From positions 28,280 through 92,279 of the IMG/VR virus record IMGVR_UViG_3300042465_005697: 64,000 bases of DNA; one strand, given 5' to 3'. Every line of letters begins with the position of its first letter. The stretch's first letter is position 1. The notes below the pieces were generated by a model, which was not told the origin of the DNA, did no database searches, and saw only the letters and a program-made list of their open reading frames with translations. The DNA comes from a virus. Its lineage: Duplodnaviria; Heunggongvirae; Uroviricota; Caudoviricetes. The position numbers and the translations under genes are program-made. Shown here one piece after another: positions 1 to 55,716 of the stretch.

Positions 1-49
1 TATATTAACAGAATCACAGTATGGAAGACTTGTTGAAAGTCAAGAAGTT

Positions 50-481
50 GTGGATCGTCTTTTAGATAAGATAACAGAAAAAGGATATGACTCTTTAAAT
101 ATTGATGAAAAAAGATATTTAAAATATTATTCAGAACATACAAAACAAGGTGGTAGACCTGATGAGTTTGTTGATCCTTCAGAACGATATGATGAAAGAG
201 AAGGTGAAGTAATCAATGGGATGCTTGCAGATCAACCAATACAATTTACATTTTCCGAAGAAAATGATAATGGTGATGAGGTTGAATATTTTGGTGAGAT
301 TAAATTTGGTGGAAAAGAATACTTTGGGTCATTTGCAACTGATAAACGAGGATATTTAATTGATTATGATTTTTATAATGTGGATGATGAGGAAGATTAT
401 GGATTAAAAGATGTTGCCGAAGGGTTAGAATATGAATTAGAATCATTTTTTTCTGAAAATGTTGTTCCACAACTGAAATAA
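50..481 (+). CDS. hypothetical acidic protein (possibly 5'-truncated by window edge)
   Basis: 143-aa ORF, D/E-rich, no recognisable motifs. Confidence 0.45.
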   Translation: MDRLLDKITEKGYDSLNIDEKRYLKYYSEHTKQGGRPDEFVDPSERYDEREGEVINGMLADQPIQFTFSEENDNGDEVEYFGEIKFGGKEYFGSFATDKRGYLIDYDFYNVDDEEDYGLKDVAEGLEYELESFFSENVVPQLK

Positions 482-525
482 GAGATATTTATAATAAAAC
501 AATAAAGAAATTAAAAAAAAACATA

Positions 526-909
526 ATGAAAAAAGTAATTAGACTAACAGAAAGTGAATTGACTGAGTTGATACAAAGAATAATCGTTGAGACAAAAATG
601 GATTCAAAAGAGTCTGATTTTGCTGAGATGGAAGAAGGGTTCTTCGGTGCTAGTCGTAAAGAAAAAGAGGAATCTAAAACTAAGATGAAATCTAATATGG
701 AAAATCTTTTATCAGATAAAGATATGACTGAAGATGATATTTTAAATTCAATTGAAGATGTTCTTAATCAAGCAAAACAATATAACTATAAAGGAACAGT
801 TAAATTGGTTAAATCATCTAAAGGTAAACCGATGTTATACTTAACTCCTGAATTAACTAAGATGCAAAAATTGGCAACAGGTACTGGAAGTCAAACTGCT
901 GGTAAATAA
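526..909 (+). CDS. hypothetical protein with conserved N-terminal MKKVIRLTESELTELIQRIIVE motif
   Basis: 127-aa ORF followed by hairpin+T-run terminator; N-terminus belongs to the repeated family seen throughout the window. Confidence 0.55.
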   Translation: MKKVIRLTESELTELIQRIIVETKMDSKESDFAEMEEGFFGASRKEKEESKTKMKSNMENLLSDKDMTEDDILNSIEDVLNQAKQYNYKGTVKLVKSSKGKPMLYLTPELTKMQKLATGTGSQTAGK

Positions 910-930
910 TTTAAAGAATTACAATAATAA

Positions 931-953
931 AAAGGGACTAATGTCCCTTTTTT
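931..953 (+). terminator. intrinsic terminator (gggac-taat-gtccc + T6)
   Basis: GC stem-loop followed by TTTTTT directly after stop of 526..909. Confidence 0.6.
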
Positions 954-956
954 AGT

Positions 957-1292
957 TTAATCCAAATCATCAACCATTTTGTGTATTAACAAAATAGCAT
1001 TATAATTAGTTTCACTAAACTTCAAGTAATTGTAAGATCTAATTGTTTGTTGGATAAAAACAACACCCAATGAGATAAATACGATTGTTGGTATAACCCC
1101 TAAAAATGGGTTAAGTCCGTAGATCACACTAATGAATGTGAAGAACACTAAACTAATTGCCGAGAATTTAAATTTAGATCTCCAAGACTCAACAATCAAT
1201 TCCTGTTCTTGCAATTGTTTTTCTTTTTTTTCTTTTAATTCTATTGAGTTCATAATCGTCGTATATTTAATAAGTATATACAAATATAACAC
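957..1292 (-). CDS. small membrane protein (two predicted TM helices)
   Basis: 111-aa ORF with two long hydrophobic stretches; start uncertain. Confidence 0.4.
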   Translation of the reverse strand: MLYLYILIKYTTIMNSIELKEKKEKQLQEQELIVESWRSKFKFSAISLVFFTFISVIYGLNPFLGVIPTIVFISLGVVFIQQTIRSYNYLKFSETNYNAILLIHKMVDDLD

Positions 1293-1323
1293 ATTTATTT
1301 AAACTACACAATATTTATTTAAT

Positions 1324-1935
1324 ATGAAGATAATAATTACCGAAGAACAAAATCAAATGTTAAATTTGATTGTTGAGATTGAGAATGTTAAACCATCAAG
1401 ATCTGCGGTAAAAAACATATGTGATAGTGAGAAATTTTGTAATGCTCAAGGAGAAATAACTTTTGGTCAATTACGTGCGTTAGTTGAATCAACAACAAGG
1501 AAGAGATTATTCCAACACGTAGGTGAAGGAGGGTTCAAAGCAACCATTAGAATGTTGCCTTGGTTTATACCCCAATTAATTATTGCGGGTGCGATTGGTT
1601 CAGCGGCAAGGGCAATAAATAAAATTATTAGACCAACATTAGAGGAGACTACTAACTATAAGACTTGGTGGGGAAAGTCGGTTATGAAAGCCTTTGATTT
1701 AATTGAGGGTGAATTAGGTATTTCAGATCCACTATCTAAAATATTCTTTATCTCTGATGGTCTTATGACTATGATGGATAATAAATATAAGGTAAAATTT
1801 GCAAGATATATTGCAAACATCGCAAGTGATCAACCAGATGATAAAGTAGTGCCTGAATATTTTGTTGAGAACGAATTAAGAAAGTGGGTTAATGATAAAT
1901 TCCTTTTAGATCCACCGCTTCCACCAAAATCATAA
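1324..1935 (+). CDS. hypothetical protein (N-term MKIIITEEQNQMLNLIVEIE)
   Basis: 203-aa ORF; N-terminus paralogous to 12452..13072. Confidence 0.55.
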   Translation: MKIIITEEQNQMLNLIVEIENVKPSRSAVKNICDSEKFCNAQGEITFGQLRALVESTTRKRLFQHVGEGGFKATIRMLPWFIPQLIIAGAIGSAARAINKIIRPTLEETTNYKTWWGKSVMKAFDLIEGELGISDPLSKIFFISDGLMTMMDNKYKVKFARYIANIASDQPDDKVVPEYFVENELRKWVNDKFLLDPPLPPKS

Positions 1936-1976
1936 CTTTTATTTTTTTTATTAAATGTTTTATCTATCTTTGTTGT

Positions 1977-2564
1977 ATGGACGATATTAAAACATATGGT
2001 AGATTACCAATTCCAAAAGATTCTGCTTGGGAAAGAGATACATTTTGGAGGAAACTACCATCTTGGTTGAAAGAATTTTTAACTGGATGTAACAATATAA
2101 TTAAATGGGTTCCAACAATTTGGAAACAAAGGGATTGGGATGATACATTTATTTTGATGATTTTACAAAAGAAGATAGAGTTCCAAAGAGAGGAATTAGT
2201 TTCTGCCAATAGACATACAAGAATTGATATTGATAACCGTGATATGACTATTGTGTTGAATTTAATTGAAAGGATTAAAGAACAATATTACTCTATTGAA
2301 TATTTGGACTATCGTGAAACCAAATTTAGATTTGAACCTATAGAAGGAGATCCAAAACGTAAACGTTTGGAGATTGATATTATTTGGGAAGAAGATGATA
2401 AGTTTTTATCAAAATACCCTTCTACTGTTCGTAAGGTAATGAAGGATAAACCAGATCTTGATAAATCAAGTCTATGTCACTGGGTATCACATTATAATGA
2501 AGAAAAAGCCAACGATCTTTTATTTAGAATCTTGAAGGAGAGAATGAGATGGTGGTGGGACTAA
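1977..2564 (+). CDS. hypothetical Trp-rich protein
   Basis: 195-aa ORF. Confidence 0.5.
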   Translation: MDDIKTYGRLPIPKDSAWERDTFWRKLPSWLKEFLTGCNNIIKWVPTIWKQRDWDDTFILMILQKKIEFQREELVSANRHTRIDIDNRDMTIVLNLIERIKEQYYSIEYLDYRETKFRFEPIEGDPKRKRLEIDIIWEEDDKFLSKYPSTVRKVMKDKPDLDKSSLCHWVSHYNEEKANDLLFRILKERMRWWWD

Positions 2565-2834
2565 TGGTTTAACGTCTAAGGTGGAAACAACAATTGGATT
2601 TGTGTTTCTACCTAAGATCGGCCAACCTGTACTTACCATAAAATTTATCCCATCGGGGTGAGCCTCCACAGATTCCACAATATTGTCGGTATATATTGTA
2701 ATTGTGATCATATGTGATTTTTTACTTCTAATCCAAACAACACTATTAACAATAATATCACAATTAGGACCATAAAGAATATCTTTTTGTTCTTTCAATA
2801 CCTTATTCAATATAATTTCTAAATGTCTTTTCAT
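2520..2834 (-). CDS. hypothetical protein
   Basis: 104-aa ORF convergent with previous gene. Confidence 0.35.
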   Translation of the reverse strand: MKRHLEIILNKVLKEQKDILYGPNCDIIVNSVVWIRSKKSHMITITIYTDNIVESVEAHPDGINFMVSTGWPILGRNTNPIVVSTLDVKPLVPPPSHSLLQDSK

Positions 2835-2941
2835 CTAATGAAAATATAACCCCATAATCTATTAAGACAAGGGTGTCTTTTGCTAATTTAACTCGTCAAT
2901 AAAGACAATATAAAATATATAACACTATTTATCGCATAACT

Positions 2942-5161
2942 ATGAAGAATTTAATTTTAACCTTACTGATGGTACTAATATCATCAACATCATTTACACA
3001 ATATTGCCCATATCTTGGGGTAGATCAAATATTACCTTGTGGGGTAGGTTCCACCACACTAACGGCAGATTTAAGTCAATGTGGTCCTGGAGGACCTAAC
3101 CCAAATCAAACCACAAACTATGGAATAACAAATATACCTTATGTTGCACAAACTAATACTGGAACGAGCATATCTATGACTGACGATTCGCAGCAAGGTC
3201 CGTTTAACATAGGGTTTAATTTTTGTTTTTTTGGAACAACATACACACAATTTTATATTGGGTCTAATGGTTGGGTTTCTTTTACAGGTGGACAACCCAC
3301 AACATTTACCTCACAAACAATACCAACTGGAAATGCATTAGTTCCTAAGAATTGTATTATGGGTCCGTGGCAAGATTGGCATCCAGGATTAGGAGGTCAA
3401 ATTAAATATCAAATGTCAGGGATTGCACCTTGTAGAAAATTAACCGTTAGTTGGATTGGGGTTCCAATGTTCTCTTGTACAAGTAATCAAGGAACATTTC
3501 ACATTGTCATATACGAATCAACAAATATTATAGAAAATCACATACAAAATAAACCATCTTGTGTGAATTGGCAAGGGGGAACTGCGGTTGAGGGAATTCA
3601 TAATGCCGCAGGGACAATAGGAATTACTGTTCCGGGGAGAAACTCAACTGCTTGGGTGACGAATAACGACTCTTGGAGATGGACACCATCAGGACCTGTG
3701 GTAACACCAACATTAACTTGGTATCAAGTGGGTAATCCAACACCAATTGGAACTGGACCAACGATTACTGTAACACCACCAGCGGCAGGTGCTAACTATA
3801 CGTGTCATTTTGTTTACCCAATTTGTAATGCCGGGTGGTCTACTTGTAATGTTGTTGGTGGGTTAGGTCCCGACACAGTTTTTGTTTCTCCTGGTCCTCC
3901 TAACATCCAAACCACAATATCATCATTCACAGAACCTCTTTGTTATTTAGATTGTGATGGTACTGCAACTGTAACCCCAATTAATGGTGGACCAATCTAT
4001 AATTATTTATGGTCTAACGGGCAAACATCACAAACATCCGTAAATTTATGTGCCGGCACTTATAATGTTGTTGTAACTGACAATAATGGGTGTACTGGTA
4101 ATTCTTCTATTACAATAAACCAACCAACTCAACTTTTATTTGATACTTTAATTGGAATTGACGTTACTTGTAATGAAAATGATGGATCTGTAATTATTGA
4201 AGGTGTTGGAGGAACACAACCTTACAATTATTTAATTGATAATGTAATATCAAACGACACTATCAATGGATTAAGTGGTGGAAACTATTTAATTTCCATT
4301 CAAGACATTAATGGGTGTCAGGTAGATTCAAATATCAACTTAACTTTCCCAATACCGGTAACACCATCATTAATTCCGTTGGATACTGTTAATTGCGTCC
4401 CTGGTGACTTCATATTTACCAACTTATCAACACCAATTGGTAATGTTGTTAGTTCATACATACAATTTGGTGATAATACGGATACAACTATACTATTAAA
4501 CAATGGTTTTACCCACATATATGACTCAGTTGGGATGTGGGACATCACTATGTCGGTAACATCTGACTATGGGTGTGTGTATGCCCAAACTTTTACCAAT
4601 ATTGTTGAAACAAAACCATTACCTACCGCACAATTTAATATATCACCTAACCCAACAACGTTTTTTGAGGTTACGGTGATGGTACAGGATCAATCATATA
4701 GTAATATTGTTGATTGGTGGTGGTATGCACCTGATGCAACACCAACATTAAGTATAACTAACAACCCAACATTCACATTCCCAGAAGGAATCGTTGGTCA
4801 ATACCCAATATACCTTGTGGTTACGGATAATCTTGGGTGTACAGACACAACATCAAGAATTTTAACCGTTTTAAGTGATGTGTTATCGTTCATACCTAAC
4901 ACATTTACACCTGATGGTGATGAATATAACCAAGATTGGGGTTTTAACTTTGATGGTATTGATGAAACAGGGTTTAGTTTGTATGTTTTTAACCGTTGGG
5001 GAGAGATTGTTTGGGAAACTCACGACTCACACGAGAAATGGGACGGAACATATGGTGGAAAGATCGTTTCAGAAGGTATGTACGTGTGGAAATCAGAGTT
5101 TGGTGTTATTAATACCGATGAAAGACGAACAATAAACGGAATTGTAAACGTTATAAGATGA
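2942..5161 (+). CDS. secreted Cys/Thr-rich repeat protein with PKD-like domain and T9SS type-B C-terminal sorting domain (gliding-motility-associated CTD)
   Basis: Signal peptide MKNLILTLLMVLISSTSF; repeated C..G.T / CxxxDGxxT modules; PKD-like segment; C-terminus FIPNxFTPDGDxxNQDWGF...YVFNRWGEIVWE..W.G matches the CHU_C/T9SS type-B CTD family; terminator downstream. Confidence 0.7.
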   Translation: MKNLILTLLMVLISSTSFTQYCPYLGVDQILPCGVGSTTLTADLSQCGPGGPNPNQTTNYGITNIPYVAQTNTGTSISMTDDSQQGPFNIGFNFCFFGTTYTQFYIGSNGWVSFTGGQPTTFTSQTIPTGNALVPKNCIMGPWQDWHPGLGGQIKYQMSGIAPCRKLTVSWIGVPMFSCTSNQGTFHIVIYESTNIIENHIQNKPSCVNWQGGTAVEGIHNAAGTIGITVPGRNSTAWVTNNDSWRWTPSGPVVTPTLTWYQVGNPTPIGTGPTITVTPPAAGANYTCHFVYPICNAGWSTCNVVGGLGPDTVFVSPGPPNIQTTISSFTEPLCYLDCDGTATVTPINGGPIYNYLWSNGQTSQTSVNLCAGTYNVVVTDNNGCTGNSSITINQPTQLLFDTLIGIDVTCNENDGSVIIEGVGGTQPYNYLIDNVISNDTINGLSGGNYLISIQDINGCQVDSNINLTFPIPVTPSLIPLDTVNCVPGDFIFTNLSTPIGNVVSSYIQFGDNTDTTILLNNGFTHIYDSVGMWDITMSVTSDYGCVYAQTFTNIVETKPLPTAQFNISPNPTTFFEVTVMVQDQSYSNIVDWWWYAPDATPTLSITNNPTFTFPEGIVGQYPIYLVVTDNLGCTDTTSRILTVLSDVLSFIPNTFTPDGDEYNQDWGFNFDGIDETGFSLYVFNRWGEIVWETHDSHEKWDGTYGGKIVSEGMYVWKSEFGVINTDERRTINGIVNVIR

Positions 5162-5187
5162 ATGTAGATATATTTATAGGAATATTA

Positions 5188-5216
5188 ACACCCCTTATCA
5201 TTTTGGGGGTGTTTTT
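5188..5216 (+). terminator. intrinsic terminator (acacccc...ggggtgt + T5)
   Basis: Stem-loop plus T-run just after stop of 2942..5161. Confidence 0.6.
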
Positions 5217-5303
5217 CATTGTTTCACATAGAAAAAAGAGAGATAATAAGTCATTTTAAAGTATTTATTTGTATAAACAACAATAAAATACAAATAAATC
5301 ACT

Positions 5304-6116
5304 ATGTTATTAAAATTAGGATCAAAAGGTGAGGAAGTTAAACAACTTCAAACCAAATTAGGGTTAACATCGGACGGATCGTTTGGTCCTGGCACTGAAA
5401 AAGCGGTTAAAGAATGGCAAACTAACAACGGATTAACCTCAGATGGTGTAATCGGAGATAAAAGTTGGTCTAAAATGTTCCCAACAACCGAATTAGTTAC
5501 AGAAAGTGTTGGTGGAACACTAAATATTGATAAATTAAAGGGTCATATACCTGATTCTGTCCTTTTACAGATCCCTGACACCGCAAAAAAGTTTAATATC
5601 ACAAATAATCTACGTTTGGCTCACTTTTTAGCCCAATGCAGTCACGAATCAGGTGGTTTTAAGGCGATTTCAGAGAATTTAAACTATTCTGCTGACGGTT
5701 TGAAGAAAATATTCGGTAAATACTTCCCAGGGAACTTAAATGAGTCATATGCAAGACAACCTGAGAAGATTGCGGCTCGTGTTTATGGTGGAAGAATGGG
5801 AAATGGTGACGAATCTACTAAAGAAGGGTATAAATTCCGAGGAAGAGGGTTCATTCAACTAACAGGGAAGTCAAATTATGTCAATTTTACCAAATTTATA
5901 GGTGAAGATTGTGTTTCTAACCCCGATTTGGTAGCAAATAAGTACCCATTAGCGTCTGCGGCGTTCTTTTTTGACTCAAATAAGTTGTGGAGTACCTGTG
6001 ATCAGGGATCTAGTGATGAAATCGTCACAAAAGTAACAAAAAGAGTGAATGGAGGAACAATTGGACTACCAGATCGTATAAAACACTTCAAAGAGTACTA
6101 TAATCTACTAAAATAA
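5304..6116 (+). CDS. endolysin: N-terminal peptidoglycan-binding domain fused to a GH19-family (chitinase-like) lysozyme domain
   Basis: Tandem LGxxxDGxFGxxTxxAVKxWQ PG_binding_1-like repeats; AHFLAQCSHESGGF and FRGRGFIQLTG motifs typical of GH19 phage endolysins. Confidence 0.75.
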   Translation: MLLKLGSKGEEVKQLQTKLGLTSDGSFGPGTEKAVKEWQTNNGLTSDGVIGDKSWSKMFPTTELVTESVGGTLNIDKLKGHIPDSVLLQIPDTAKKFNITNNLRLAHFLAQCSHESGGFKAISENLNYSADGLKKIFGKYFPGNLNESYARQPEKIAARVYGGRMGNGDESTKEGYKFRGRGFIQLTGKSNYVNFTKFIGEDCVSNPDLVANKYPLASAAFFFDSNKLWSTCDQGSSDEIVTKVTKRVNGGTIGLPDRIKHFKEYYNLLK

Positions 6117-6163
6117 GTTGATAATACCCATAATTACCGTTATTATTAGTAAAAACAGTAATT

Positions 6164-6376
6164 ATGGTACTTGCAATTGCATTATTCGTCTTTTCGGCGA
6201 TATTATTAGTAGGTTTTATCGGTTTTTACCTTTGGTGGAAGAAATTTGGTAAAGAAATGTTCAATATGGTTAAAAATATGGGAAATCAGAGTAAATTACC
6301 CATAAAACCCTTAAATATTGGAGATATAACCAAACAAATGGATGAATTTAAGAAAATGTTCAACAAAAACAGGTAA
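6164..6376 (+). CDS. small single-TM protein (holin/lysis-associated candidate)
   Basis: 70-aa ORF, N-terminal TM helix, basic C-term, immediately downstream of endolysin and followed by terminator. Confidence 0.4.
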   Translation: MVLAIALFVFSAILLVGFIGFYLWWKKFGKEMFNMVKNMGNQSKLPIKPLNIGDITKQMDEFKKMFNKNR

Positions 6377-6402
6377 AATCACCTAAAAACTAACAATTTT
6401 AA

Positions 6403-6442
6403 GGTAAAAGTGATAAAAAAACGTCATTTTTACCTTTTTTTT
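6403..6442 (+). terminator. intrinsic terminator (ggtaaaa...ttttacc + T8)
   Basis: 7-bp stem followed by TTTTTTTT. Confidence 0.5.
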
Positions 6443-6533
6443 GTTATAAAAAGACATTTAATGGTAATTTATGACGTTTTTTTAGGTAAAAATACCATAT
6501 AATTACCTTAATTTAGGGGTAAAATGACCCAAA

Positions 6534-6734
6534 TTAGACCTTTTTTATGGGTTTTTTGTACTTAGTTTCCACCTCATATGGTCCTGTAACTGTCTTTAAA
6601 TTGTCATATCTCCATACCTGAGTACAATCATCATACTCAAATACACGTTCAAACTTAACTTGATCCTTTATTTTAACATTATTCTTTCTCATAACACAAA
6701 GATACGAATAATAATTGATATAAAAAAACCCCAC
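6534..6734 (-). CDS. hypothetical small protein
   Basis: 66-aa ORF. Confidence 0.3.
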   Translation of the reverse strand: MGFFYINYYSYLCVMRKNNVKIKDQVKFERVFEYDDCTQVWRYDNLKTVTGPYEVETKYKKPIKKV

Positions 6735-6748
6735 TTTCGGTGGGGTTT
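6724..6748 (-). terminator. intrinsic terminator (ccccaccgaaagtgggg + T-run on minus strand)
   Basis: 9-bp GC stem with T-run on minus strand downstream of 6776..7525. Confidence 0.55.
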
Positions 6749-6775
6749 AATGTTGAAACCTTGTTTTTATGTTAT

Positions 6776-7525
6776 TTAGAACTTTTCACCACAAGTTGGA
6801 CAGAACTTATGATTTGTTTTCTTTCGTTTAGACCCACAATTGGTACAATAGGATACTAAATCCTTAACTTCGTATTTTTTTTGTGATTCTGGTAGTATTT
6901 TCCAGTATGATTTTGAAACTGTTAGGTGTTCAAACTCTTTATTTACGGTTTTAAATGATTGGTCACTATTAGATCCTTTCTCAACACGACCTGTTTCCAC
7001 ACTTTTTAACTTTTTACGTCTTAGATTATTAAAACCATTTTCTTTGTTTGAACTTAAATTTGTTATTGTCGTTGTTTTATAGTTAACATCGGTTGAACCG
7101 ATAGTTGTGTTAAAGTAAGTTCCATAAGTACTATGAAGACTACCTAAAGGGTTATAATTTAAATTTAATACCGGTATTGATTCCTTTTCATTATAAAACT
7201 CAATTTCCACATCACCATTCTCAACAATTGCGTTTTGAGTCTCAACCGATCCATCTACGTGGTAAGTTTCAAACTTAAACTTACGAGGATCATCCAAGTA
7301 TCTTTCTAAGAATACTCTTTCACCAGGACGAAGGACAATTCCCCCACCTGTGATATATGTTCCATTTATTTTTACTTTTGATAGGACGGTTTTCCTTGAT
7401 GGGTTATAGAGTTCTAGTTCAAACTCAGATCCGTCTTTTAGATAGACATTATGATCAAATTGTTTGATTCTTTGTCTGTTTTTAGTTACATATGCACACG
7501 GCATATCATTAATTGATTGATACAT
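6776..7525 (-). CDS. hypothetical protein with C-terminal zinc-ribbon (CxxC...CxxC)
   Basis: 249-aa ORF ending ...CTNCGSKRKKTNHKFCPTCGEKF. Confidence 0.5.
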   Translation of the reverse strand: MYQSINDMPCAYVTKNRQRIKQFDHNVYLKDGSEFELELYNPSRKTVLSKVKINGTYITGGGIVLRPGERVFLERYLDDPRKFKFETYHVDGSVETQNAIVENGDVEIEFYNEKESIPVLNLNYNPLGSLHSTYGTYFNTTIGSTDVNYKTTTITNLSSNKENGFNNLRRKKLKSVETGRVEKGSNSDQSFKTVNKEFEHLTVSKSYWKILPESQKKYEVKDLVSYCTNCGSKRKKTNHKFCPTCGEKF

Positions 7526-7669
7526 TTTTCATTATTTTAATTTTTATGTTTATTGATCTCCGATTCATTGGTTTTACTCCAACTCAAATGTCTTACAGAC
7601 ACTCGGACCTCATTAACAAGGTTTCAAGTATAATTATACGATTAGTTTATTATTTTGTAAACATATTGT

Positions 7670-8080
7670 TTATTTTTTTCTTCCCCACTTATAATGTACC
7701 ACTTCACCATTTATGTATTCCTTCCATCTTTTTTTCCAAGGACCTGATAATAGTATTGTACAACAACCATTACTTTTTGCAATTCTATGATATGAATCTC
7801 TTGGGAAATACTTAAAGAATTGAGTCCTCCTTTCAATATGGAACTCACCTGTCTTTTCATCATCCAAAATGTGTTCATCATATTCACCAAACAATTTAAA
7901 CGACAATGCGTTAAATGCGTGGGTATGAAACCTATCTTGAGAATGATCTGATTTATGAAAATAAAAAAATATGATTGATCCCAACCATTTACACTCAAAT
8001 ACCACGAATTGAGTTACTTTCTGCTCACCAAACTCAAATCTATTGAGTCTTAAAAATGAAATATTATCCGTCTTTATCAC
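7670..8080 (-). CDS. hypothetical protein
   Basis: 136-aa ORF; preferred over overlapping low-complexity + strand ORF 7513..7815. Confidence 0.4.
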   Translation of the reverse strand: MIKTDNISFLRLNRFEFGEQKVTQFVVFECKWLGSIIFFYFHKSDHSQDRFHTHAFNALSFKLFGEYDEHILDDEKTGEFHIERRTQFFKYFPRDSYHRIAKSNGCCTILLSGPWKKRWKEYINGEVVHYKWGRKK

Positions 8081-8120
8081 GGAATATAATGGTAGGTAAT
8101 TTATATTAATTAGTCAAACA

Positions 8121-8147
8121 AAAAAAACCCACCTTTGTGGGGTGGGT
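8121..8147 (-). terminator. intrinsic terminator (cccacc/ggtggg stem + T-run on minus)
   Basis: Downstream of minus-strand gene 8165..8425. Confidence 0.55.
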
Positions 8148-8164
8148 TATATAAAAGATTATTA

Positions 8165-8425
8165 TTATCGTTTAAAGTTCCTTAATACTTCATCCTTGGT
8201 GAGTGATCCAATGTTATTTTTTCTTCTATGATGTATTGCCTTTGAATTTCTTAATATGTTTTCCAAAACATCAACAACATCAGATGGGTTAATGCCCGAA
8301 TATTTTTCATTAATTAAATCGTTAATATCGGAATATAAATTACCTTTTTGATCGTCTTGTTCTTTAATGACTTTTTTAATTATTCTGCTTAAATCAGTTT
8401 CATTTAATTTTATTGCTCTTCTCAT
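8165..8425 (-). CDS. small protein with N-terminal MRRAIKLNETDLSRIIKKVIKE motif
   Basis: 86-aa ORF; member of N-terminal motif family. Confidence 0.5.
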   Translation of the reverse strand: MRRAIKLNETDLSRIIKKVIKEQDDQKGNLYSDINDLINEKYSGINPSDVVDVLENILRNSKAIHHRRKNNIGSLTKDEVLRNFKR

Positions 8426-8454
8426 AAGTTATTTTATTTATAAATAGTATGAAA

Positions 8455-8482
8455 AACAAAAAACCCCACCTTGTGAGTGGGG
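8455..8482 (-). terminator. intrinsic terminator (ccccac/gtgggg + T-run on minus)
   Basis: Downstream of 8508..8801. Confidence 0.55.
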
Positions 8483-8507
8483 AATAGTTAATAAAAATGA
8501 TAATGGG

Positions 8508-8801
8508 TTAATCTTCTTTTTTTTCTTTTTGAATTTGGTTAATAATGTATCCTGAGATTGCAAACTCAATACCTGCCCACATAACCATATCTGTTGTGGT
8601 CATTGTACTGACTTTATTTAGTAAAAAATAAATCATGCCCCACTGTGCAATAATAAATGCAATACCTGATTCAACTCTCTTCTTGGAAAAAAATGATTTA
8701 TTAACACTATAAACGTTAATAATTTCTTTAATACCCCATTTAATGTTTGTCCAACCAAAAAAATACTTCTTTTCGGTGACATTTTCTTTCTTTGTTGCCA
8801 T
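8508..8801 (-). CDS. small membrane protein
   Basis: 97-aa ORF with hydrophobic segments. Confidence 0.45.
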   Translation of the reverse strand: MATKKENVTEKKYFFGWTNIKWGIKEIINVYSVNKSFFSKKRVESGIAFIIAQWGMIYFLLNKVSTMTTTDMVMWAGIEFAISGYIINQIQKEKKED

Positions 8802-8878
8802 ATCCCTTTTTATTATAAATATTTAAAAAAGTTGTGAAAAACTATTTACTTTAATTTATGGGTTATTTTTTATCGCAT

Positions 8879-8906
8879 AAAAAAAGGGACAGTAGCGAAT
8901 TGTCCC
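8879..8906 (-). terminator. intrinsic terminator (gggaca/tgtccc, T-runs both sides)
   Basis: Downstream of 8949..9473 on minus strand. Confidence 0.5.
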
Positions 8907-8948
8907 TTTTAAATGTTACCATAACGATAACGGTCCTAATTAAAAATC

Positions 8949-9473
8949 TTAAACCCCTTTTATAAGGTTAATACATTGTTTTAAATATTCTTTAGATCTT
9001 GGAGATGGTGTATATTCGTCATCAGTTACTTGTAAGTTAAGTATTTTCTCAATGTCTTTAACTAATTCAGTTCCGTGTTCGTTCTCTTTATATAGTTCAA
9101 TAATTTTATTCATTGACTTATGACATTCACCACTAGTCTCATCGTAATAATGTTTATTACGGAACTTATTTAAATGGTTCATCATTTCATATGCCAAATG
9201 TTCTCCACCATCCTTAACATCTTTGAATAATCTGATGTTATTTAGGATACCTAAAGTATCTACCATACCATTAACGCCTTTGTTTCTTTTTGAGACACCA
9301 GGTGAGTATTTTGTATATCCTTCTGAATCACCAACAATCTCATCCAACGGAATAACGTTCTCGGGCATACATCTTGGTTTAACTTCTCCTTTATTAACTT
9401 TAGATTTTTCATCTTCGGTTAGGATTCTACGTAATGTAGTCTTAATCGCTCTTTCTGTTATAAATTTTTTCAT
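8949..9473 (-). CDS. hypothetical protein (N-term MKKFITERAIKTTLRRILTE)
   Basis: 174-aa ORF. Confidence 0.55.
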   Translation of the reverse strand: MKKFITERAIKTTLRRILTEDEKSKVNKGEVKPRCMPENVIPLDEIVGDSEGYTKYSPGVSKRNKGVNGMVDTLGILNNIRLFKDVKDGGEHLAYEMMNHLNKFRNKHYYDETSGECHKSMNKIIELYKENEHGTELVKDIEKILNLQVTDDEYTPSPRSKEYLKQCINLIKGV

Positions 9474-9543
9474 AATAAAAAACTTTTTAATATAAATACC
9501 GAATAAACAATAAGTTTTATAGTATTTATTAATATAAATATAT

Positions 9544-10185
9544 GTGAGTATGGTTAATATTGAACAAATCGTTAGAAAAGTTTTAAATGAAACTTATAAT
9601 CCCAAATCTATGGTGATTGTGGAGGATGTTAAAACATCTAGTAATTTGGATTACCACATTAAAAATAATTTAACAATTTCCGAAAATATCTTTAGACCAT
9701 ATTCGGATAGTTACTTTAATTTAGTTTGTGAGGTTAGAGAATTATATAATAACGGATCCATTGATTTACCTAAGAATGATTTATGGTTAATTGAAACGGA
9801 TCTTGGTAATGTCGTTAAATTAACGAATGGGGAATATGTTTCATTGGATTGTCCTTATTTGATTGAGGATAATGAATTGTTATCTGAAGCTGAATATCAA
9901 GGTAAGAAGGTGAAGGTTGGTTATCCAATGAGAGATTCTGGAGGAAAGAAGAAATATAAGGTTTATGTTAAAAATCCAAGTACTGGAAATATTAAAAAAA
10001 TCACATTTGGTGATGTACACGGGGGTTTAACTGCCAAGGTATCCAATCCTAAGGCAAGAAAAAGTTTTGCTGCTAGACATAAGTGTAAAGACAAAAAAGA
10101 TAGGACTAAGGCTGGTTATTGGGCGTGTAGAATAAATAAATATGGTCACCTATGGGGTAATCGCACTTATCCGGGGTATTGGTAA
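9544..10185 (+). CDS. hypothetical protein
   Basis: 213-aa ORF; basic C-terminus. Confidence 0.55.
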   Translation: MSMVNIEQIVRKVLNETYNPKSMVIVEDVKTSSNLDYHIKNNLTISENIFRPYSDSYFNLVCEVRELYNNGSIDLPKNDLWLIETDLGNVVKLTNGEYVSLDCPYLIEDNELLSEAEYQGKKVKVGYPMRDSGGKKKYKVYVKNPSTGNIKKITFGDVHGGLTAKVSNPKARKSFAARHKCKDKKDRTKAGYWACRINKYGHLWGNRTYPGYW

Positions 10186-10187
10186 TT

Positions 10188-10805
10188 ATGAAATATACTG
10201 AAGAATATTTAGATAAAACTGAGAAAATGATTAATAGATTTATATCTAAATACAGACCATTTTCTGATGATAATTTTATTGGATATAGAGCAATTATTGG
10301 TCAAGAAATATATTCTGATTATTTAACGGTTAACTTAACGGGGGTGTTTGAAAATCCATTTAGTAGAGACTCTTCAGATACTGCAAATCATAATACAATA
10401 ACGTTAATTAGACTTTTAAGAAATACATTTCCCTTTTTAAAAGGTGCAAGTATTACAGGAGGAAGTACCTCTACTAACGATTCATATCTTAACCGTATTA
10501 AATATGAAAAACGATGGTTAGGTAGGGACGTAGTTGAATCCCATACACCATACAAACAAACAATAAAAGACGGAATAAAAACACGTAAATTTGATCAGAA
10601 CATTGACGAACACGAACTTAAATGGCATCGTGATGAAAGTGATCGTGTGGTTAAAGTTGTTAAGGGTAATGGTTGGAAATTCCAAATGGATAATGAATTA
10701 CCGATAACATTAAAAGAAGGGGACAGAATAACCATCCCCTCTGAAACATATCATAGAGTGATTAGGGGCACAGGTGATTTAATTATAAAGATCAAAGAAC
10801 TTTAA
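10188..10805 (+). CDS. hypothetical protein
   Basis: ORF-track start 10179 is TTG; first ATG at 10188 (MKYTEEY...). Confidence 0.5.
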   Translation: MKYTEEYLDKTEKMINRFISKYRPFSDDNFIGYRAIIGQEIYSDYLTVNLTGVFENPFSRDSSDTANHNTITLIRLLRNTFPFLKGASITGGSTSTNDSYLNRIKYEKRWLGRDVVESHTPYKQTIKDGIKTRKFDQNIDEHELKWHRDESDRVVKVVKGNGWKFQMDNELPITLKEGDRITIPSETYHRVIRGTGDLIIKIKEL

Positions 10806-11765
10806 TTATTTCACAATAACATAATCAACAGACAAAAGGGATTTCAACTTGGAAGGGTTACCTCCACCATAAGAGATTGCACTTTGTAACGATTCCTCAA
10901 TAGATTTTAATTTAACAAATATTGATTCTTGTTTAAATGGGACTAATTTCTTAATTCCCTCAACTCTTTCATTTTTTCCTGTTTGTTCTGACGATGCTGA
11001 TCCCCAAAATGTTTTATACCAAACATTATCAACTTGTTTTAATTTTCCTGGAGATTCTTCATACCCGGCAAACATTCCACCAACCATAACCATATCGGCA
11101 CCCAAAACCAAACTTTTAACAATGTCCGAATGTTCTTTAATTGACCCATCAGCAATAATTGGTTTTTTTGCTACCTCACAACAATCTTTAATCATATTTG
11201 CTTGCCACCCACGATTACCAAATCCGGTTGAATGATATGTTGTACAGGCAGATCCTCCACCAATACCACATTTAACTGAATCACAACCCCATTTCTCAAG
11301 ATCAATTACACCTTCAGGTGTTGATACATTACCACCAATGATAAACGTATTCATCATTTTCTTTCTAAGGTGGGTAACCATTTTTTTCATTTTTATTGAA
11401 TGTCCGTGGGCAATATCAATTGTAATAAAATCGGGAAATAGATTTTTGGATATTAGTTCGTCTATCAAAGTATAAGAGTCATCATTAACACCTATTGAGA
11501 TGGAAGTCATTAATCCCATTTCCTTCATTACGGTAACAAATTCAACCACATCAGTTCCAAATCTATGTAAGATATAGAAATACCCTTCCCTAACTAGTTT
11601 TATTGCCAATGAGGTATCAATAATACTTTCCATATTTGCAGGAACCACAGGTAGTTTAAATTTAAACCCACCAAATTTTGTTGTAACGTCACATTCGGAT
11701 CTGGATTCAACTACACTATATTTAGGGATTAATGTTATATCCTCAAAATCAAATTTTTTCTTCAT
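10806..11765 (-). CDS. guaC: GMP reductase (IMPDH/GMPR family), auxiliary nucleotide-metabolism gene
   Basis: 319 aa; DITLIP...S, IDIAHGHS, GGNV, CGIGGGSxCTT, ADGSI, GADMVMVGG motifs align along the length with bacterial GuaC. Confidence 0.8.
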   Translation of the reverse strand: MKKKFDFEDITLIPKYSVVESRSECDVTTKFGGFKFKLPVVPANMESIIDTSLAIKLVREGYFYILHRFGTDVVEFVTVMKEMGLMTSISIGVNDDSYTLIDELISKNLFPDFITIDIAHGHSIKMKKMVTHLRKKMMNTFIIGGNVSTPEGVIDLEKWGCDSVKCGIGGGSACTTYHSTGFGNRGWQANMIKDCCEVAKKPIIADGSIKEHSDIVKSLVLGADMVMVGGMFAGYEESPGKLKQVDNVWYKTFWGSASSEQTGKNERVEGIKKLVPFKQESIFVKLKSIEESLQSAISYGGGNPSKLKSLLSVDYVIVK

Positions 11766-11824
11766 ATTTATTTAAAAGTATTTAGTTTAAACATTCAAGA
11801 AAAATAATCGTTATATTTATTACT

Positions 11825-12439
11825 ATGAACATCAGGGAAACAATAAAGAAAATAATCAATGAAGACAATAGGATGAGAGGTAATATTCGTCAGATAGTAA
11901 GGGATATTGTAATCGTATTTAAAAATGAAGATGAGGGAGAATTCCAATTACCTGAATATTTTGAGGATCGTGATGAAATGGTTTATAACTTTGTTGGGTT
12001 ACCAGTTCCATTATCCGTTGAAGTTGATTTAAATGTTGATGAATCAATTGATGGTTATGAGTTGGATGCTGATTATTATAGAGAAGAACATACTATCAAT
12101 CTTAGAATAACTTATAATCCAGAAGAAAAGTCCCAATCAATGTATGATATGATTGGTGAATTAAATGAACTAATTGCTCACGAATTAAAACACACAAGAC
12201 AACGAGTTACCGGTAATTATGATCTTGATGTTGAGGAACCTGAAGAACCCTTACAATATTACACACAACCCCACGAAATTGATGCACAATACTTTGGGTT
12301 TAAAAGACTTTCAAGATTAACAAGAAAACCATTTGAAGAAATTGTTAGAAATTGGTTTGATACACATCAAACACAACACGGATTAACGGATGATGAATCG
12401 GAGATTGTTATCGGTAAAATATTAAAACACAAAAATTAA
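11825..12439 (+). CDS. hypothetical protein
   Basis: 204-aa ORF. Confidence 0.5.
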   Translation: MNIRETIKKIINEDNRMRGNIRQIVRDIVIVFKNEDEGEFQLPEYFEDRDEMVYNFVGLPVPLSVEVDLNVDESIDGYELDADYYREEHTINLRITYNPEEKSQSMYDMIGELNELIAHELKHTRQRVTGNYDLDVEEPEEPLQYYTQPHEIDAQYFGFKRLSRLTRKPFEEIVRNWFDTHQTQHGLTDDESEIVIGKILKHKN

Positions 12440-12451
12440 TGGGAATTGGGG

Positions 12452-13072
12452 TTAACCTCTAAATCTATTAACAATCTTTTTTATTAACTCCCTAACAATT
12501 GCACTTGATCCAATAATTGCACCATAACTCAAAATTCTTTTAATTATTTGATTTACGGTATTTTGATCATACCCTGTTTGTGCCATTTCATATAGTTGTG
12601 GTAATAATGGAATAAGAAATGTATATGCTAACATATTTGCCATTTTACCCATCGTAATATTTAAACTACTAACAAATGATAAGAATGTGTCCTTTAAATT
12701 AGATGTCGCACTTAACACCTCATCAAAAACATTAACCAAACCTTTTTCTTTAATTGTTTCAAGAATTTTTGATAATGCCTTTTTATTTGAAGTGTAATAA
12801 GTAACCATTGCTCCTGTAATCAATAGTGATATGTCCAAACTTGTTAGTTCAGGGTGTTTACCCTCAATATATTGTGATACTGGCATCATAAGACCACCAA
12901 GTGTTGAACCCCAACTCATTAAGAACTCAAAATCAAGTCCTGTTGTGTCCCGTGTTTCTTTTAAAACCTTTTCGGTAAATTTTTTCATTGACCTATAAGA
13001 TCTTACGATTGATTCCGAAACACCCTCATTGAGTAGTGATCTATTCTGATTTTCTGTGATTATTATTTTCAT
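12452..13072 (-). CDS. hypothetical protein (N-term MKIIITENQNRSLL, paralogous N-terminus to 1324..1935)
   Basis: 206-aa ORF. Confidence 0.5.
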   Translation of the reverse strand: MKIIITENQNRSLLNEGVSESIVRSYRSMKKFTEKVLKETRDTTGLDFEFLMSWGSTLGGLMMPVSQYIEGKHPELTSLDISLLITGAMVTYYTSNKKALSKILETIKEKGLVNVFDEVLSATSNLKDTFLSFVSSLNITMGKMANMLAYTFLIPLLPQLYEMAQTGYDQNTVNQIIKRILSYGAIIGSSAIVRELIKKIVNRFRG

Positions 13073-13109
13073 AATTTATAATAATAAATATATTGATATA
13101 TTTATTTGT

Positions 13110-13763
13110 ATGGCAAATTTAAATTTAAATCCAGAATTGGAAAATGGGGATAGAGTAATCTGTATCTCAATGGATGATATGTATTCTCCTGTTCATATGG
13201 GAACACCAGGAACTGTAATGACTAAAAGTGTTGTTTTTGGTGATACTCAATATTATGTTGCTTGGGATAATGGATCCAAATTGGCACTTATTGCTGGTGT
13301 TGATAAGTGGGTTAGAGAAGAGGATATGAAGGGTAGAAGAAAGAAGACTGAAGAATCTGTTATGGAAACAACTAAAAAAGGTTTTTTAAAAGAAAACTTT
13401 TTCCAACAAAATAAAGAGTTGTTTAAATATTTTAATCACGCATTTTTACACAAATACCTAAAAAGTTTGAGAGAGTCTGGTGTTGTTAATATGTTAGGGG
13501 CGGCACCTTATTTTGTTCTTGGTTCGGAAAGAGTTGCTCACGAACATCATTATGATGATAATAAAAATGAGGAAGCATTTGAGGAAGTGGTTGAAATGGC
13601 TGATCAGGCAAGAGATGAAATGATTAGAGGTGCAATGAAACTACTTGAAGCAGAAGGAAAAGAAATCACACCAGAATCGGTTAAAAAAATAATGGATATT
13701 TATTCAAGAAAGATGGTAATGGCTTACACCAAATTTGCCGGAGGATATTTAAACACTAATTAA
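13110..13763 (+). CDS. hypothetical protein
   Basis: Likely start MANLNLNPELENG inside ORF 13056..13763. Confidence 0.5.
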   Translation: MANLNLNPELENGDRVICISMDDMYSPVHMGTPGTVMTKSVVFGDTQYYVAWDNGSKLALIAGVDKWVREEDMKGRRKKTEESVMETTKKGFLKENFFQQNKELFKYFNHAFLHKYLKSLRESGVVNMLGAAPYFVLGSERVAHEHHYDDNKNEEAFEEVVEMADQARDEMIRGAMKLLEAEGKEITPESVKKIMDIYSRKMVMAYTKFAGGYLNTN

Positions 13764-13788
13764 TGATATTTATATAAAAACAAAAACT

Positions 13789-14499
13789 ATGGCACAATAT
13801 TTTTTCGGGATGACCCAAGCAGAAAAAAACGATATTTTAGAACAACACAAAACCATTTATGATGGTTATGTGACTGAATACGGACAAGGAAGTAATGAAA
13901 CACCGTTATATGTTCAAGACTTTGCAAACGATAAACAAGGAATTACCGTATCCAATAAGGGTGTTGTTAAACCATATACCAATATGGGAATTAACGAATC
14001 TGATCTACCATTAGATATGATTGGTGATGGTGAGGATGACTTAATTAACGGAACAGTTGATATTGATGGTGAAAACCGTTTTGAAGATGAGGATATTGAA
14101 TACATATCATTAGGTCTAAACGATGATGGTGATTACGATGATTATGCTGATGAAGATTATGACGATAAGTTTGATAAAGAATCTCAAGAAATTAAAAGAA
14201 TAAATAGAGACTTAGGTAAAGACGAAGACGAATTAGATGAAGGGTGGGATGATCATAAAATGAAACGACGTTATGATGATTATGACCCAGCAAACTTTAG
14301 AAAAATACCAAAAACTTTTCGACCAGGAATGGAGGATTATGAAGGAACAGAATTAATTAGTCGTGATGATGATGAAGAGTTTGATATGTTTGACGATATT
14401 GATTTTTCAGGTGAGGTTGATGAAGACATTTTACCGGAATTTACGGAGAAGTTGAACGAGTCTTTGGATATGTTTAAAAGATTCAAAAATTACAACTAA
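13789..14499 (+). CDS. hypothetical highly acidic protein (D/E/Y-rich)
   Basis: 236-aa ORF; shares DEDYDDKFDKESQEI(K/E)RI segment with 51611..53056. Confidence 0.5.
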   Translation: MAQYFFGMTQAEKNDILEQHKTIYDGYVTEYGQGSNETPLYVQDFANDKQGITVSNKGVVKPYTNMGINESDLPLDMIGDGEDDLINGTVDIDGENRFEDEDIEYISLGLNDDGDYDDYADEDYDDKFDKESQEIKRINRDLGKDEDELDEGWDDHKMKRRYDDYDPANFRKIPKTFRPGMEDYEGTELISRDDDEEFDMFDDIDFSGEVDEDILPEFTEKLNESLDMFKRFKNYN

Positions 14500-28788: not shown

Positions 28789-28893
28789 GGTCAGGTGGCG
28801 GAATGGTAGACGTTATAGGGGCGATGATTAAGTGGTTAGGATTGTAAGACTTCCTCGAATAACCACATACAGGTTCGAATCCTGTCCTGACTA
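28789..28893 (+). ncRNA. tRNA-like module U1 (type-II-like D-arm GCGGAATGGTAGACG, long internal hairpins, canonical T-arm+acceptor); not a standard cloverleaf
   Basis: 5' GGTCAGGTG + ... + ACAGGTTCGAATCCTGTCCTGACTAC 3'; no 5-7-5 anticodon arm found. Confidence 0.5.
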
Positions 28894-46769: not shown

Positions 46770-48796
46770 GTTCTTTTTGGTTTTTCTGTGGTAATTAACT
46801 TTGATGGTTCTGTAATTGTTACAACATCATCTTTTACTATAAGAGTGTAGTTAGTATTTTCCTTAACATCCCCAATTAAAATACCTTCAGATATTAGATC
46901 CTCAATTTTATCTTGGATTGCTCGTTTTAGAGGACGGGCACCAAACGTCTCATCAAACCCAACTTTTGAAATCATCTCAATCACCGAATAATCGGCAACA
47001 AAGTTATATTTCATTTTTGTTAATCTATTTAATAAGATATCAATCTCAAGTTTAACAATCTTATCAATATGGTCTTTCTTAAGTGAATTAAAGATAATAA
47101 CATCGTCAATTCTGTTAAGGAATTCAGGGGCAAAGAATTTACTTAATTCTGATTTAAGGATATCTCTTTTATGTTCCTCCTCAATATAGTCACTTTTCTT
47201 GAATCCCATTCCACCACCAAAATCTTGTAATTTTCTAACACCAATGTTTGAGGTCATAATAATTAAACAATTTTTGAAATTAATCTTTCTACCCAAACTA
47301 TCAGTAAGGTGACCATCATCCAACATTTGTAATAATGTTGAGAATATGTCTTTATTTGCCTTCTCAATTTCGTCAAACAAAATAACCGAATATGGTTTAT
47401 TTTTAACTTGTTCGGTAAGTTGTCCACCCTCTTCGTGTCCTACGTATCCTGGAGGTGATCCAATTAGACGAGAGATGGTATGTTTCTCTTGGTATTCGGA
47501 CATATCCACACGGATCATATTATCTTCATTACCAAAGATCTCTTTTGCTAGTTTCTTAGCCAAGAATGTTTTACCCACACCTGTTGATCCCAAGAATATG
47601 AATGAACCAATTGGTTTATTTGGATCCTTAATTCCGACTCTATTTCTTCTTATTGCTTTTGATATTTTGGCAACCGCTTCTTTTTGACCAATAACCAAAT
47701 CATTAAGGGTATCCTCAAGATTAACTAAAGATTTTGTTTCATCAATTGTAATTTTACTTACAGGTATTTTGGTCATATTGGATACTACCTCATATACAAG
47801 TTCTGGTGAAATTTCTTTCTTTTTAATTGTTAATTCATCATCAAACTTCTTTTTTTCTTCTGCAAGTTTTGTGATAATTTTTCGTTCTTTATCTCTCAAC
47901 TCTGCAGCCATCTCAAATTTTTGACTTTTAATAACGTCAATTTTTTCTTGTTTGATATCAGAGGCTTGTTGTTTTAATTTTTCAATTACTTCAGGTAATT
48001 TTATATCCACTTGAGATCTTGCACCAACCTCATCTAAAATATCAAATGCTTTATCGGGGAATTCACGATCCGTGATATAACGATCCGCAAGCTCAACACA
48101 AAGACCCAAAATCTCATCTGTGTATGAAACTTTATGGTGTGCTTCATATTTTGCCTTACTATTTTGTAGGATTATTAATGTTTCTTCTTTTGTTGATGGA
48201 TCAACAATAACCTTTTGGAAACGTCTTTCTAATGCCCCATCTTTTTCAAAGTTCTTACGATATTCATCTAATGTTGTTGCACCAACACATTGTATCTCTC
48301 CTCGGGCAAGTGCCGGTTTAAAGATGTTGGAAGCATCCAGTGATCCTGATGAACTACCCGCACCAACAATCGTATGGATCTCATCAATGAATACCACAAT
48401 ATTGGGGTTGTTCTGAAGTTCCTCAATAATCACTTTCATTCTTTCCTCAAATTGACCGCGATATTTTGTTCCAGCAACTATTGAATTCATATCTAAAGAT
48501 ACGATACGTTTATCCATTAAATTTTTAGGACAATCCCCTTCATAGATTTTCATTGCCAAACCTTCAACGATTGCAGTTTTACCACAACCAGGTTCCCCAA
48601 CTATAATTGGGTTATTTTTCTTTCTTCTTGATAGGATCTGAGCGATTCTCATTATTTCTGCTTCTCTACCAACCACAGGATCTAATTTACCTTCTTCTGC
48701 TAGTTTATTAAGGTCTCTACTGAAATTATCTAATACTGGTGTTCCTTTATCTGATGACTTTTTGTTTTTGTCTTCATTATCCATATTTTCTATCAT
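46745..48796 (-). CDS. ClpA/ClpC-type Hsp100 AAA+ ATPase (two nucleotide-binding domains, no Clp N-domain)
   Basis: D1 Walker A GEPGCGKT and D2 Walker A GSTGVGKT; LDxFxRDL...[10 protein letters not shown] start typical of ClpA/B D1; 683 aa. Confidence 0.8.
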
Positions 48797-55694: not shown

Positions 55695-55716
55695 ATATTT
55701 ATAGTTAAATAGTACT

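Follow-up and report, generated by a model that had tools for sequence, protein, structure and literature searches.

The 64,000-nt stretch analysed here (the window; positions 28,280 to 92,279 of IMG/VR record IMGVR_UViG_3300042465_005697) is phage DNA, and its open reading frame (ORF) at 2942..5161 is predicted to encode a type IX secretion system (T9SS) cargo protein. This 739-aa protein, hereafter the cargo, combines a signal peptide, a conserved N-terminal head, a stalk of immunoglobulin (Ig)-like modules and a type-B T9SS C-terminal sorting domain (CTD). We consider it likely that this adhesin-like cargo is exported by the T9SS of the host and re-decorates the surface of the infected cell. 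The analysis establishes its domain architecture, phage context, conservation and phylogeny; export, anchoring, timing and role are inferred. The cargo gene appears to be a stable, host-derived gene in a clade of huge T4-like Bacteroidota phages, whose hosts are probably Flavobacteriales or Crocinitomicaceae-like freshwater bacteria. The gene and its parts are as follows:

2942..5161, plus strand: cargo gene, 739 aa, phage-encoded T9SS type-B cargo (ORF list, Pfam, NCBIfam)
2942..2998, plus strand: Sec signal peptide cleaved by signal peptidase I (SPI), aa 1-19, predicted cleavage between SFT and Q (inspection, conservation, model)
2999..3901, plus strand: conserved head, aa 20-320, Cys-rich NIDO-like beta-sandwich with an Ig-like subdomain (conservation, transitive NIDO match)
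3902..4873, plus strand: stalk, aa 321-644, about four Ig-like modules, namely two SprB repeats, one Ig-like module and one PKD module (Pfam, model)
4874..5158, plus strand: T9SS type-B CTD, aa 645-739 (PF13585, TIGR04131, GhpA homology)

The cargo ORF starts at an ATG, the first start codon past an in-frame stop at about 2903, and the identical 739-aa protein (P0001) with the same neighbours is known from independent metagenome contigs. In the cargo protein, Pfam identified CHU_C (PF13585) at residues 651-735 (E 3e-12, 46.9 bits, cut-off 27), and NCBIfam identified the type-B T9SS sorting model TIGR04131 at residues 651-720 (E 1.8e-10, 40.8 bits, cut-off 35). A preliminary description of this DNA, made from the letters alone, had proposed a 739-aa protein with a C-terminal type-B domain and had staked this identification on a significant match to T9SS CTD models; both models matched above their curated cut-offs. 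The type-A CTD models PF18962 and TIGR04183 did not match the cargo protein in the same Pfam and NCBIfam scans. The stalk contains PKD_4 (PF18911; residues 558-639, 37.5 bits, cut-off 27) and two stretches of SprB repeat (PF13573; 32.9 bits, cut-off 28). The PKD-like domain of the preliminary description is thus borne out by PF18911 and not by PF00801, which reached 21.3 bits on the cargo protein, under its cut-off of 23.5. The cargo domain matches are far above chance. What had been described as Cys/Thr-rich repeats turned out to be the SprB repeats and Ig-like modules, and 20 Cys positions are invariant or nearly so in the cargo homologues, which points to oxidative folding outside the cytoplasm. 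The AlphaFold model of the full-length cargo is all-beta (predicted local distance difference test, pLDDT, 76). Rates of nonsynonymous (dN) and synonymous (dS) substitution were compared by region between the window cargo and the orthologue in a diverged phage, L081, and indicate purifying selection in every region, strongest in the head.

Inspection and conservation were the basis for calling the signal peptide. Up to the predicted cleavage site the N-terminal sequence is MKN-LILTLLMVLISS-TSFT, followed by QYCP, and positions -3 and -1 hold small residues. It has n-, h- and c-regions, AlphaFold models residues 2-17 as a helix, and Q20 does not vary among the aligned homologues (50 of 50), in agreement with the signal peptide proposed in the preliminary description. 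All 80 full-length phage copies have a comparable signal peptide followed by Q-x-CP-x-LG. In Bacteroidetes, the Q-rule describes SPI cleavage that exposes a Gln, which is then cyclised to pyroglutamate (PMC5837995). The Gln at +1 of the cargo fits this rule.

The head is the most constrained region of the cargo (about 85% identity, dN/dS about 0.07-0.09). Its identity is 80-96% in most of the 49 homologues, which share only about 51% identity over their full length, and chromosomal copies are still 65-74% identical there. Between the window and L081, residues 20-320 show a dN of 0.078 and a dS of 1.18. The AlphaFold model of the head alone is all-beta (pLDDT 76; predicted template modelling score, pTM, 0.67). 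Pfam annotates no domain in residues 20-320, and NIDO (PF06119) gave no direct match there at E values up to 1. Two proteins, P0139 and P0252, match the head by phmmer (E 1e-80 and 1e-50) and carry 8-14 tandem copies of it; their scores against Pfam NIDO are 59.8 and 58.4 bits (cut-off 25), over stretches likewise covered by head profile A3. The head therefore appears to be a distant bacterial NIDO-like module, by a transitive link through P0139 and P0252 in which only NIDO profile positions 2-54 of 186, the first third, are matched. To our knowledge, no biochemical function of NIDO is known beyond its being extracellular. In a scan of 1.84 billion cluster representatives (clusters at 50% identity), the head was found in 8,438 at E values up to 1e-3 and in 870 at E values up to 1e-30. 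It mostly lies directly after a signal peptide and also occurs in up to 14 tandem copies in giant proteins. Four such proteins (P0128, P0131, P0139 and P0252), of 2,000-4,600 aa, have 6-14 tandem heads. By its conservation, the N-terminal segment of about 300 residues, rather than the repeats, seems to be the conserved functional part of the cargo; the preliminary description had missed it.

The stalk is the most variable region, with 27-66% identity and, against L081, a dN of 0.28 and a dS of 1.08. Its modules are all-beta in the AlphaFold model. The CTD (residues 645-739) has a dN of 0.26 and a dS of 1.96 in the same comparison, and a family-specific CTD profile reaches the last residue in 80 of 80 full-length phage copies. 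The same profile found no second CTD in any frame of the window. The cargo CTD is also related to residues 5816-5883 of the 5898-residue GhpA (phmmer E 3.4e-6). GhpA is the grappling-hook protein of Aureispira, a Sec/T9SS substrate that has been imaged on the cell surface, and homologues of PorP and PorE are encoded downstream of it (bioRxiv 10.1101/2024.01.29.577165). Type-B cargo is secreted without PorV and retained on PorP-like outer-membrane barrels, with SprB-SprF and PG1035-PorP as anchoring pairs (PMC9143113).

A total of 79 loci in GTDB species genomes encode relatives of the cargo, and 76 of them are labelled Bacteroidota (Crocinitomicaceae, Flavobacteriales, Chitinophagales, Sphingobacteriaceae and others). 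The other three loci (L005, L016 and L020) bear the labels Candidatus Competibacteraceae or Akkermansia and, given that the secretion signals are Bacteroidota-specific, are probably mis-binned or mislabelled. Several homologues are clearly chromosomal. One, in a Crocinitomicaceae metagenome-assembled genome (MAG; L002, JBILRE010000002.1), adjoins enolase and carA on a 241-kb contig, and another (L011, JBGASD010000001.1, Bacteroidia) lies on a contig of 1.38 Mb. Cellular homologues have the same order of parts and a greater length, 815 to over 2,700 aa against about 731-775 aa for most phage copies. An unbootstrapped neighbour-joining tree of head sequences places the 64 distinct viral ones in approximately one clade inside the cellular diversity, sister to Flavobacteriales MAGs, and the Crocinitomicaceae copy L002 falls inside the viral clade. 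This nesting suggests that the gene passed long ago from a Flavobacteriales-like host lineage to phages, and it agrees with a Bacteroidota host. The host phylum named in the preliminary description is likewise consistent with the GTDB relatives, the Gln at +1 and the predicted hosts of related huge phages.

More than 2,248 proteins match the cargo at E values up to 1e-3, and relatives are encoded by at least 327 IMG/VR viral contigs, including contigs of 304, 291, 229, 226 and 219 kb. A search of 50,697 deposited phage records found relatives in just two uncultured huge phages and in no cultured phage: a full-length copy with 45.9% identity in LR745206.1 (634,780 bp) and a partial match in LR756502.1 (642,428 bp). 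A megablast search of window positions 1-12000 against deposited phages gave no match. The nearest deposited relative of the window is a 634-kb huge phage. Related phages above 634 kb have been predicted to infect Bacteroidetes (PMC7162821). In LR745206.1 (locus L084), a stretch of 12 kb contains at least two paralogues with a CTD, at 1348-3846 (minus strand) and 12001-14199 (plus strand). Genome-wide there are four CTD-like places in LR745206.1 and three in LR756502.1, and such huge phages may carry small repertoires of type-B cargo.

Neighbour clustering covered 86 viral loci and separated two recurrent genomic settings. In context A, the setting of the window, genes for FKBP, DUF6576 and several small ORFs precede the cargo gene, and a GH19 endolysin gene follows it. 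The two named flanking features of the window are:

first window ORF, ending at 481: DUF6576 protein
5304..6116, plus strand: endolysin with PG_binding_1 and GH19 domains, directly downstream of the cargo gene (Pfam; phrog_181, E 3e-65)

The adjacency of cargo and endolysin genes is found in 19 related viral loci. In context B (about 28 loci), the cargo gene follows genes for a major head protein, a head-tail adaptor, two tail-sheath proteins and a tail tube protein (phrog_4542), and it precedes a 123-aa ORF, a weakly T4_baseplate-like protein and large unknown proteins. An interpretation of the context B contigs as contractile injection systems was rejected, as genes for major head, adaptor and tail-tube proteins are present on them too. 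In each of the 80 full-length phage copies, which come from three genomic contexts, the signal peptide, head and CTD are retained. In phages syntenic with the window, whole-cargo identity is 44-76% and tracks the identity of the neighbours, which indicates vertical inheritance rather than repeated capture. A first impression from L081 that the cargo is far more conserved than its neighbours was not upheld by the syntenic phages; only the head is exceptional.

Other genes near the cargo vary among the phages. In the diverged phages L081 and L082, a rhomboid-family intramembrane protease of 187-188 aa is encoded directly upstream of the cargo orthologue (rhomboid region of L082, 9260-9823). A 692-aa GEVED-domain protein is also encoded upstream in L081 (region of both genes, 7188-9934), and a DUF6576 protein recurs nearby. 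A link between the rhomboid protease and the window cargo was rejected, as the upstream ORFs of the window are unrelated to the rhomboid and GEVED genes of these phages. In some context A loci, a GAF-PAS histidine kinase and a response regulator are encoded between cargo and endolysin. This arrangement was located at 10392-13744 in L087, 12351-15618 in L091, 9090-13380 in L106 and 4031-9086 (minus strand) in L122. The genes there encode a GAF-PAS-HATPase histidine kinase of 590-740 aa, a receiver-domain response regulator of 145 aa and a 225-aa ORF. The kinase and regulator would constitute a phage-encoded two-component system. The window does not have this trio beside the cargo gene.

The cargo gene is preceded by a spacer of 107 nt and has candidate expression signals at both ends:

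2926..2932, plus strand: promoter-like motif TATTTAT (variant CTATTTATC), 16 nt before the start codon
5188..5219, plus strand: terminator-like, G+C-rich hairpin ACACCCC...GGGGTGT with a T-run, 27 nt after the stop codon

The motif (A/G)TATTTAT(A/T) occurs 11-40 nt upstream of about 29 of the 69 window ORFs, including those for terminase, prohead protease, the probable major capsid protein, endolysin and the cargo (example positions 55696, 61107, 62194 and 2926). The 8-mer TATTTATA is present in 16 upstream windows, out of 33 occurrences genome-wide, an approximately 8-fold upstream enrichment. As a candidate promoter or leader element of the phage, the motif differs from the T4 late-promoter motif TATAAATA, which is not found upstream of the cargo gene. 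A scan for sigma-70 promoters showed no enrichment (17 sites versus 18.9 expected). In context B, the cargo gene is packed 19-74 nt from tail genes. This tight packing, together with the endolysin adjacency, suggests late expression of the cargo.

On this basis, the following course of events is proposed. During infection, the cargo pre-protein would be exported by Sec and cut by signal peptidase I before Gln20, and it would fold in the periplasm with about ten disulfides. The host T9SS translocon would recognise the type-B CTD, and a PorP/SprF-like outer-membrane protein of the host would hold the cargo on the cell surface. The short stalk of four Ig-like modules would then present the NIDO-like head as a binding (adhesin) module, and the phage would thereby alter the surface display or the attachments of the infected cell. 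The position of the gene beside late genes (endolysin in the window; tail tube and baseplate in the sister group) suggests late action. The likely benefit is one of two: surface receptors would be blocked or replaced, so that superinfecting phages are excluded and progeny are protected from debris, or the lysing cell would be held beside new hosts or particles. In Flavobacterium, susceptibility to phages depends on genes for gliding and the T9SS (PMC9804748), which speaks for the proposal.

Several observations weigh against this proposal. Type-B cargo of F. johnsoniae is thought to need cognate PorP-like partners (PMC9143113). No PorP/SprF-like gene was found by Pfam among the window ORFs of at least 195 aa and a few shorter ones, nor within 10 kb of four orthologues, so the phage protein would have to use a resident host anchor, which is the weakest step of the model. 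In addition, the head tree carries no support values, no solved relative of the head was found in PDB by sequence, profile or Foldseek searches (nothing below E 0.1 in the latter), and the position between tail-tube and baseplate-like genes in the approximately 28 context B loci would also suit a virion protein. Three cellular homologues examined also have no adjoining PorP/SprF-like partner. The same Pfam scan of window ORFs found no type-A CTD protein or other T9SS part. Nor was an integrase found among the window ORFs scanned, so infection rather than lysogeny is the relevant case for the cargo; nothing in the window suggests the lysogeny that the preliminary description had left as an option.

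Other explanations of the same gene were considered. If the cargo were a tail-associated or decoration protein of the virion, assembled in the cytoplasm, its CHU_C-like domain would be a mere beta-sandwich or a ligand of the T9SS. The location of the gene in context B, where tail-sheath and tail-tube genes immediately precede it and the baseplate-like gene follows, would fit such a protein, as would the resemblance of its Ig-like and PKD modules to Hoc and other virion proteins, and its best viral fold matches are uncharacterised phage proteins. This explanation is nevertheless quite improbable given the cleavable signal peptide with its invariant Gln at +1 in all 80 full-length copies, the 20 conserved Cys positions and the full-length chromosomal homologues that bear the same secretion signals. 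The cargo also matches no PHROG family, and its gene lies 50 kb from the head genes of the window and has its own terminator. The conservation data largely refute the idea that the cargo gene is a passenger of recent host origin without a phage role, or that it is a chimera of assembly or binning; we regard this as extremely improbable. The closest cellular homologue, that of the Crocinitomicaceae MAG, does fall inside the viral clade of the neighbour-joining tree, and GC content is slightly raised over the cargo gene (0.354, versus 0.296 and 0.302 in the flanking 2-kb windows). Yet relatives occur in at least 327 viral contigs, synteny persists between phages even where the neighbours they share have only 30-80% identity, every region has a dN/dS well under 1, and the identical gene with its neighbours was recovered from independent samples.

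Two further explanations concern what an exported cargo would do. As a dedicated superinfection-exclusion or receptor-masking factor, the short phage copy would compete with the longer homologues of the host, or with other type-B adhesins, for PorP/SprF anchors or for the translocon, and so remove or cover the receptor of the phage. In function it would resemble T5 Llp or the Cor proteins. Such a role is plausible but, as the specific function of this gene, unlikely; it is a sub-case of the export explanation, not an alternative to export. Exclusion genes of other phages, such as those for T5 Llp and Cor proteins, sit in tail regions, and the cargo gene likewise lies among tail or lysis genes. 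Phage copies are shorter than cellular ones (815 aa or more), yet they have kept the head and CTD. In F. psychrophilum, loss of gliding or T9SS functions leads to phage resistance (PMC9804748). A receptor-mimicking head would be expected to diversify, yet the head is the most conserved region, and such extreme conservation fits a conserved ligand better than an arms race. A bolder proposal, which we hold to be rather improbable, is that the huge-phage clade steers how infected cells behave by means of the T9SS and gliding apparatus of the host. The cargo would be a late type-B adhesin that is attached to PorP/SprF anchors of the host, perhaps on its gliding track. Its head, nearly identical to that of host adhesins, could share their ligand or could bind to the host homologue on cells nearby. 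The lysing cell would be tethered to fresh hosts or particles, or the receptor would be replaced, and the gene would be more than a carried moron, as the phage would manipulate adhesion or motility. The GAF-PAS kinase and response regulator beside the cargo in some relatives would fit regulated deployment of this kind. Surface re-decoration by a T9SS-exported cargo remains the explanation that we favour.

The remainder of the window contains T4-type structural genes, other phage features and genes of cellular type (the ClpB-like ATPase and the IMPDH/GMP-reductase, SPFH/Band-7 and C2H2-zinc-finger proteins):

55717-57480: T4-type large terminase (Pfam)
57794-59632: T4-type portal (Pfam)
61130-61858: T4-type prohead protease (Pfam)
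46745-48796, minus strand: ClpB-like double AAA+ ATPase (Pfam)
10806-11765, minus strand: IMPDH/GMP-reductase family protein
31562-32467, plus strand: SPFH/Band-7 protein
32898-33830, minus strand: C2H2-zinc-finger protein with a DUF559/MTES_1575 endonuclease-like domain, in the tRNA region
41960-42367, plus strand: GOLLD RNA (RF02032), full-length, model positions 1-416, 321.6 bits (gathering threshold 150)
43234-43457, minus strand: group I intron (RF00028), 94.7 bits
43431-43824, minus strand: transfer-messenger RNA (tmRNA)-like match (RF00023), 49.7 bits (gathering threshold 47)

ARAGORN predicted 25 tRNA genes with 20 amino-acid specificities between window positions 16942 and 36988. The tRNA Ile-tat gene (16942-17028) sits inside a 634-aa ORF (16785-18689). 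Two further tRNA matches of about 105 nt (28789-28893 and 36745-36852) were found by Rfam only, were not called by ARAGORN, and may carry introns. The GOLLD RNA lies about 5 kb past the last tRNA gene of the array (36914-36988). The group I intron and the tmRNA-like match overlap by 27 nt, and ARAGORN calls no tmRNA there; the pair may be an intron-containing or unusual phage tmRNA.

If the proposed export is correct, the repertoire of huge Bacteroidota phages goes beyond translation and nucleotide genes and includes a surface protein, maintained by purifying selection, which would be functional only through the phylum-specific T9SS export of their hosts. The cargo would then be a concrete case of virocell surface remodelling via the T9SS, by the type-B, PorP/SprF-dependent route. 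It could also serve as a sequence marker of the host phylum, and probably the host order, for uncultured megaphages. Its head offers a handle on a very large uncharacterised extracellular family of about 8,400 clusters at 50% identity. For the T9SS itself, the cargo raises the question of whether a type-B cargo without a cognate PorP-like partner can use a resident one.

Among cellular proteins, the cargo resembles SprB of F. johnsoniae, GhpA of Aureispira and PG1035 of P. gingivalis in its Sec signal, Ig-like/SprB repeats and type-B CTD. It differs from them in that no PorP/SprF or PorE gene was found adjacent to its gene. GhpA and SprB have about 5,900-6,500 aa, whereas the cargo has 739 aa, a NIDO-like head and is phage-encoded. 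The comparison with the SprB family suggested in the preliminary description holds for the SprB repeats, which score above their cut-off; the cargo is not giant, has about four stalk modules and lies among phage neighbours rather than in an sprCDBF-type operon. The cargo also resembles the chromosomal Bacteroidota homologues, which share the signal peptide, the Q, the CPxLGP head, the Ig-like stalk and CHU_C, and differ in being longer, with more stalk modules or tandem heads. Sources name them 'gliding motility-associated C-terminal domain' proteins, and we found no functional characterisation of them.

Other phages also export envelope proteins. Lambda Lom and Bor, T5 Llp and Cor-type proteins are encoded in or near tail or late genes and alter the surface of the infected cell, conferring exclusion, adhesion or serum resistance. 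They use the Sec, Lol or Bam pathways rather than the T9SS, and they are not known to be related in sequence to the cargo. P. gingivalis phages carry proteins with Q-rule signal peptides (Matrishin et al. 2023, PMC10367356), which are likewise adapted to Sec/SPI export with a Gln at +1; no T9SS CTD has been reported for them, and these phages are temperate with small genomes. In the huge-phage paper, cell-surface proteins of such phages are mentioned only generically. In the literature searched, no report was found of a type-B CTD or a PorP/SprF-dependent route in phages, or of the cargo family or its clade-wide conservation. The nearest precedents are the T9SS-tagged cargo genes of the Cryophage from cryoconite, which that study presented as unique (Bellas et al. 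2020, PMC7468147), and the T9SS sorting-domain ORFs of crAss-BACON gut phage contigs (de Jonge et al. 2019, PMC6949934). Like the cargo, these are phage proteins with a C-terminal T9SS sorting signal and a presumed hijack of the host system, known from metagenomic evidence only. The Cryophage proteins have type-A CTDs on enzymes or PA14 proteins and are encoded in hypervariable islands. In contrast, the window cargo is type B, which implies PorP/SprF anchoring and independence of PorV/PorU, and it is adhesin-like, syntenic and conserved clade-wide. Phage-encoded T9SS cargo of type A was therefore known before, and what appears new here is the type-B, adhesin-like nature of the cargo and the breadth of its conservation.

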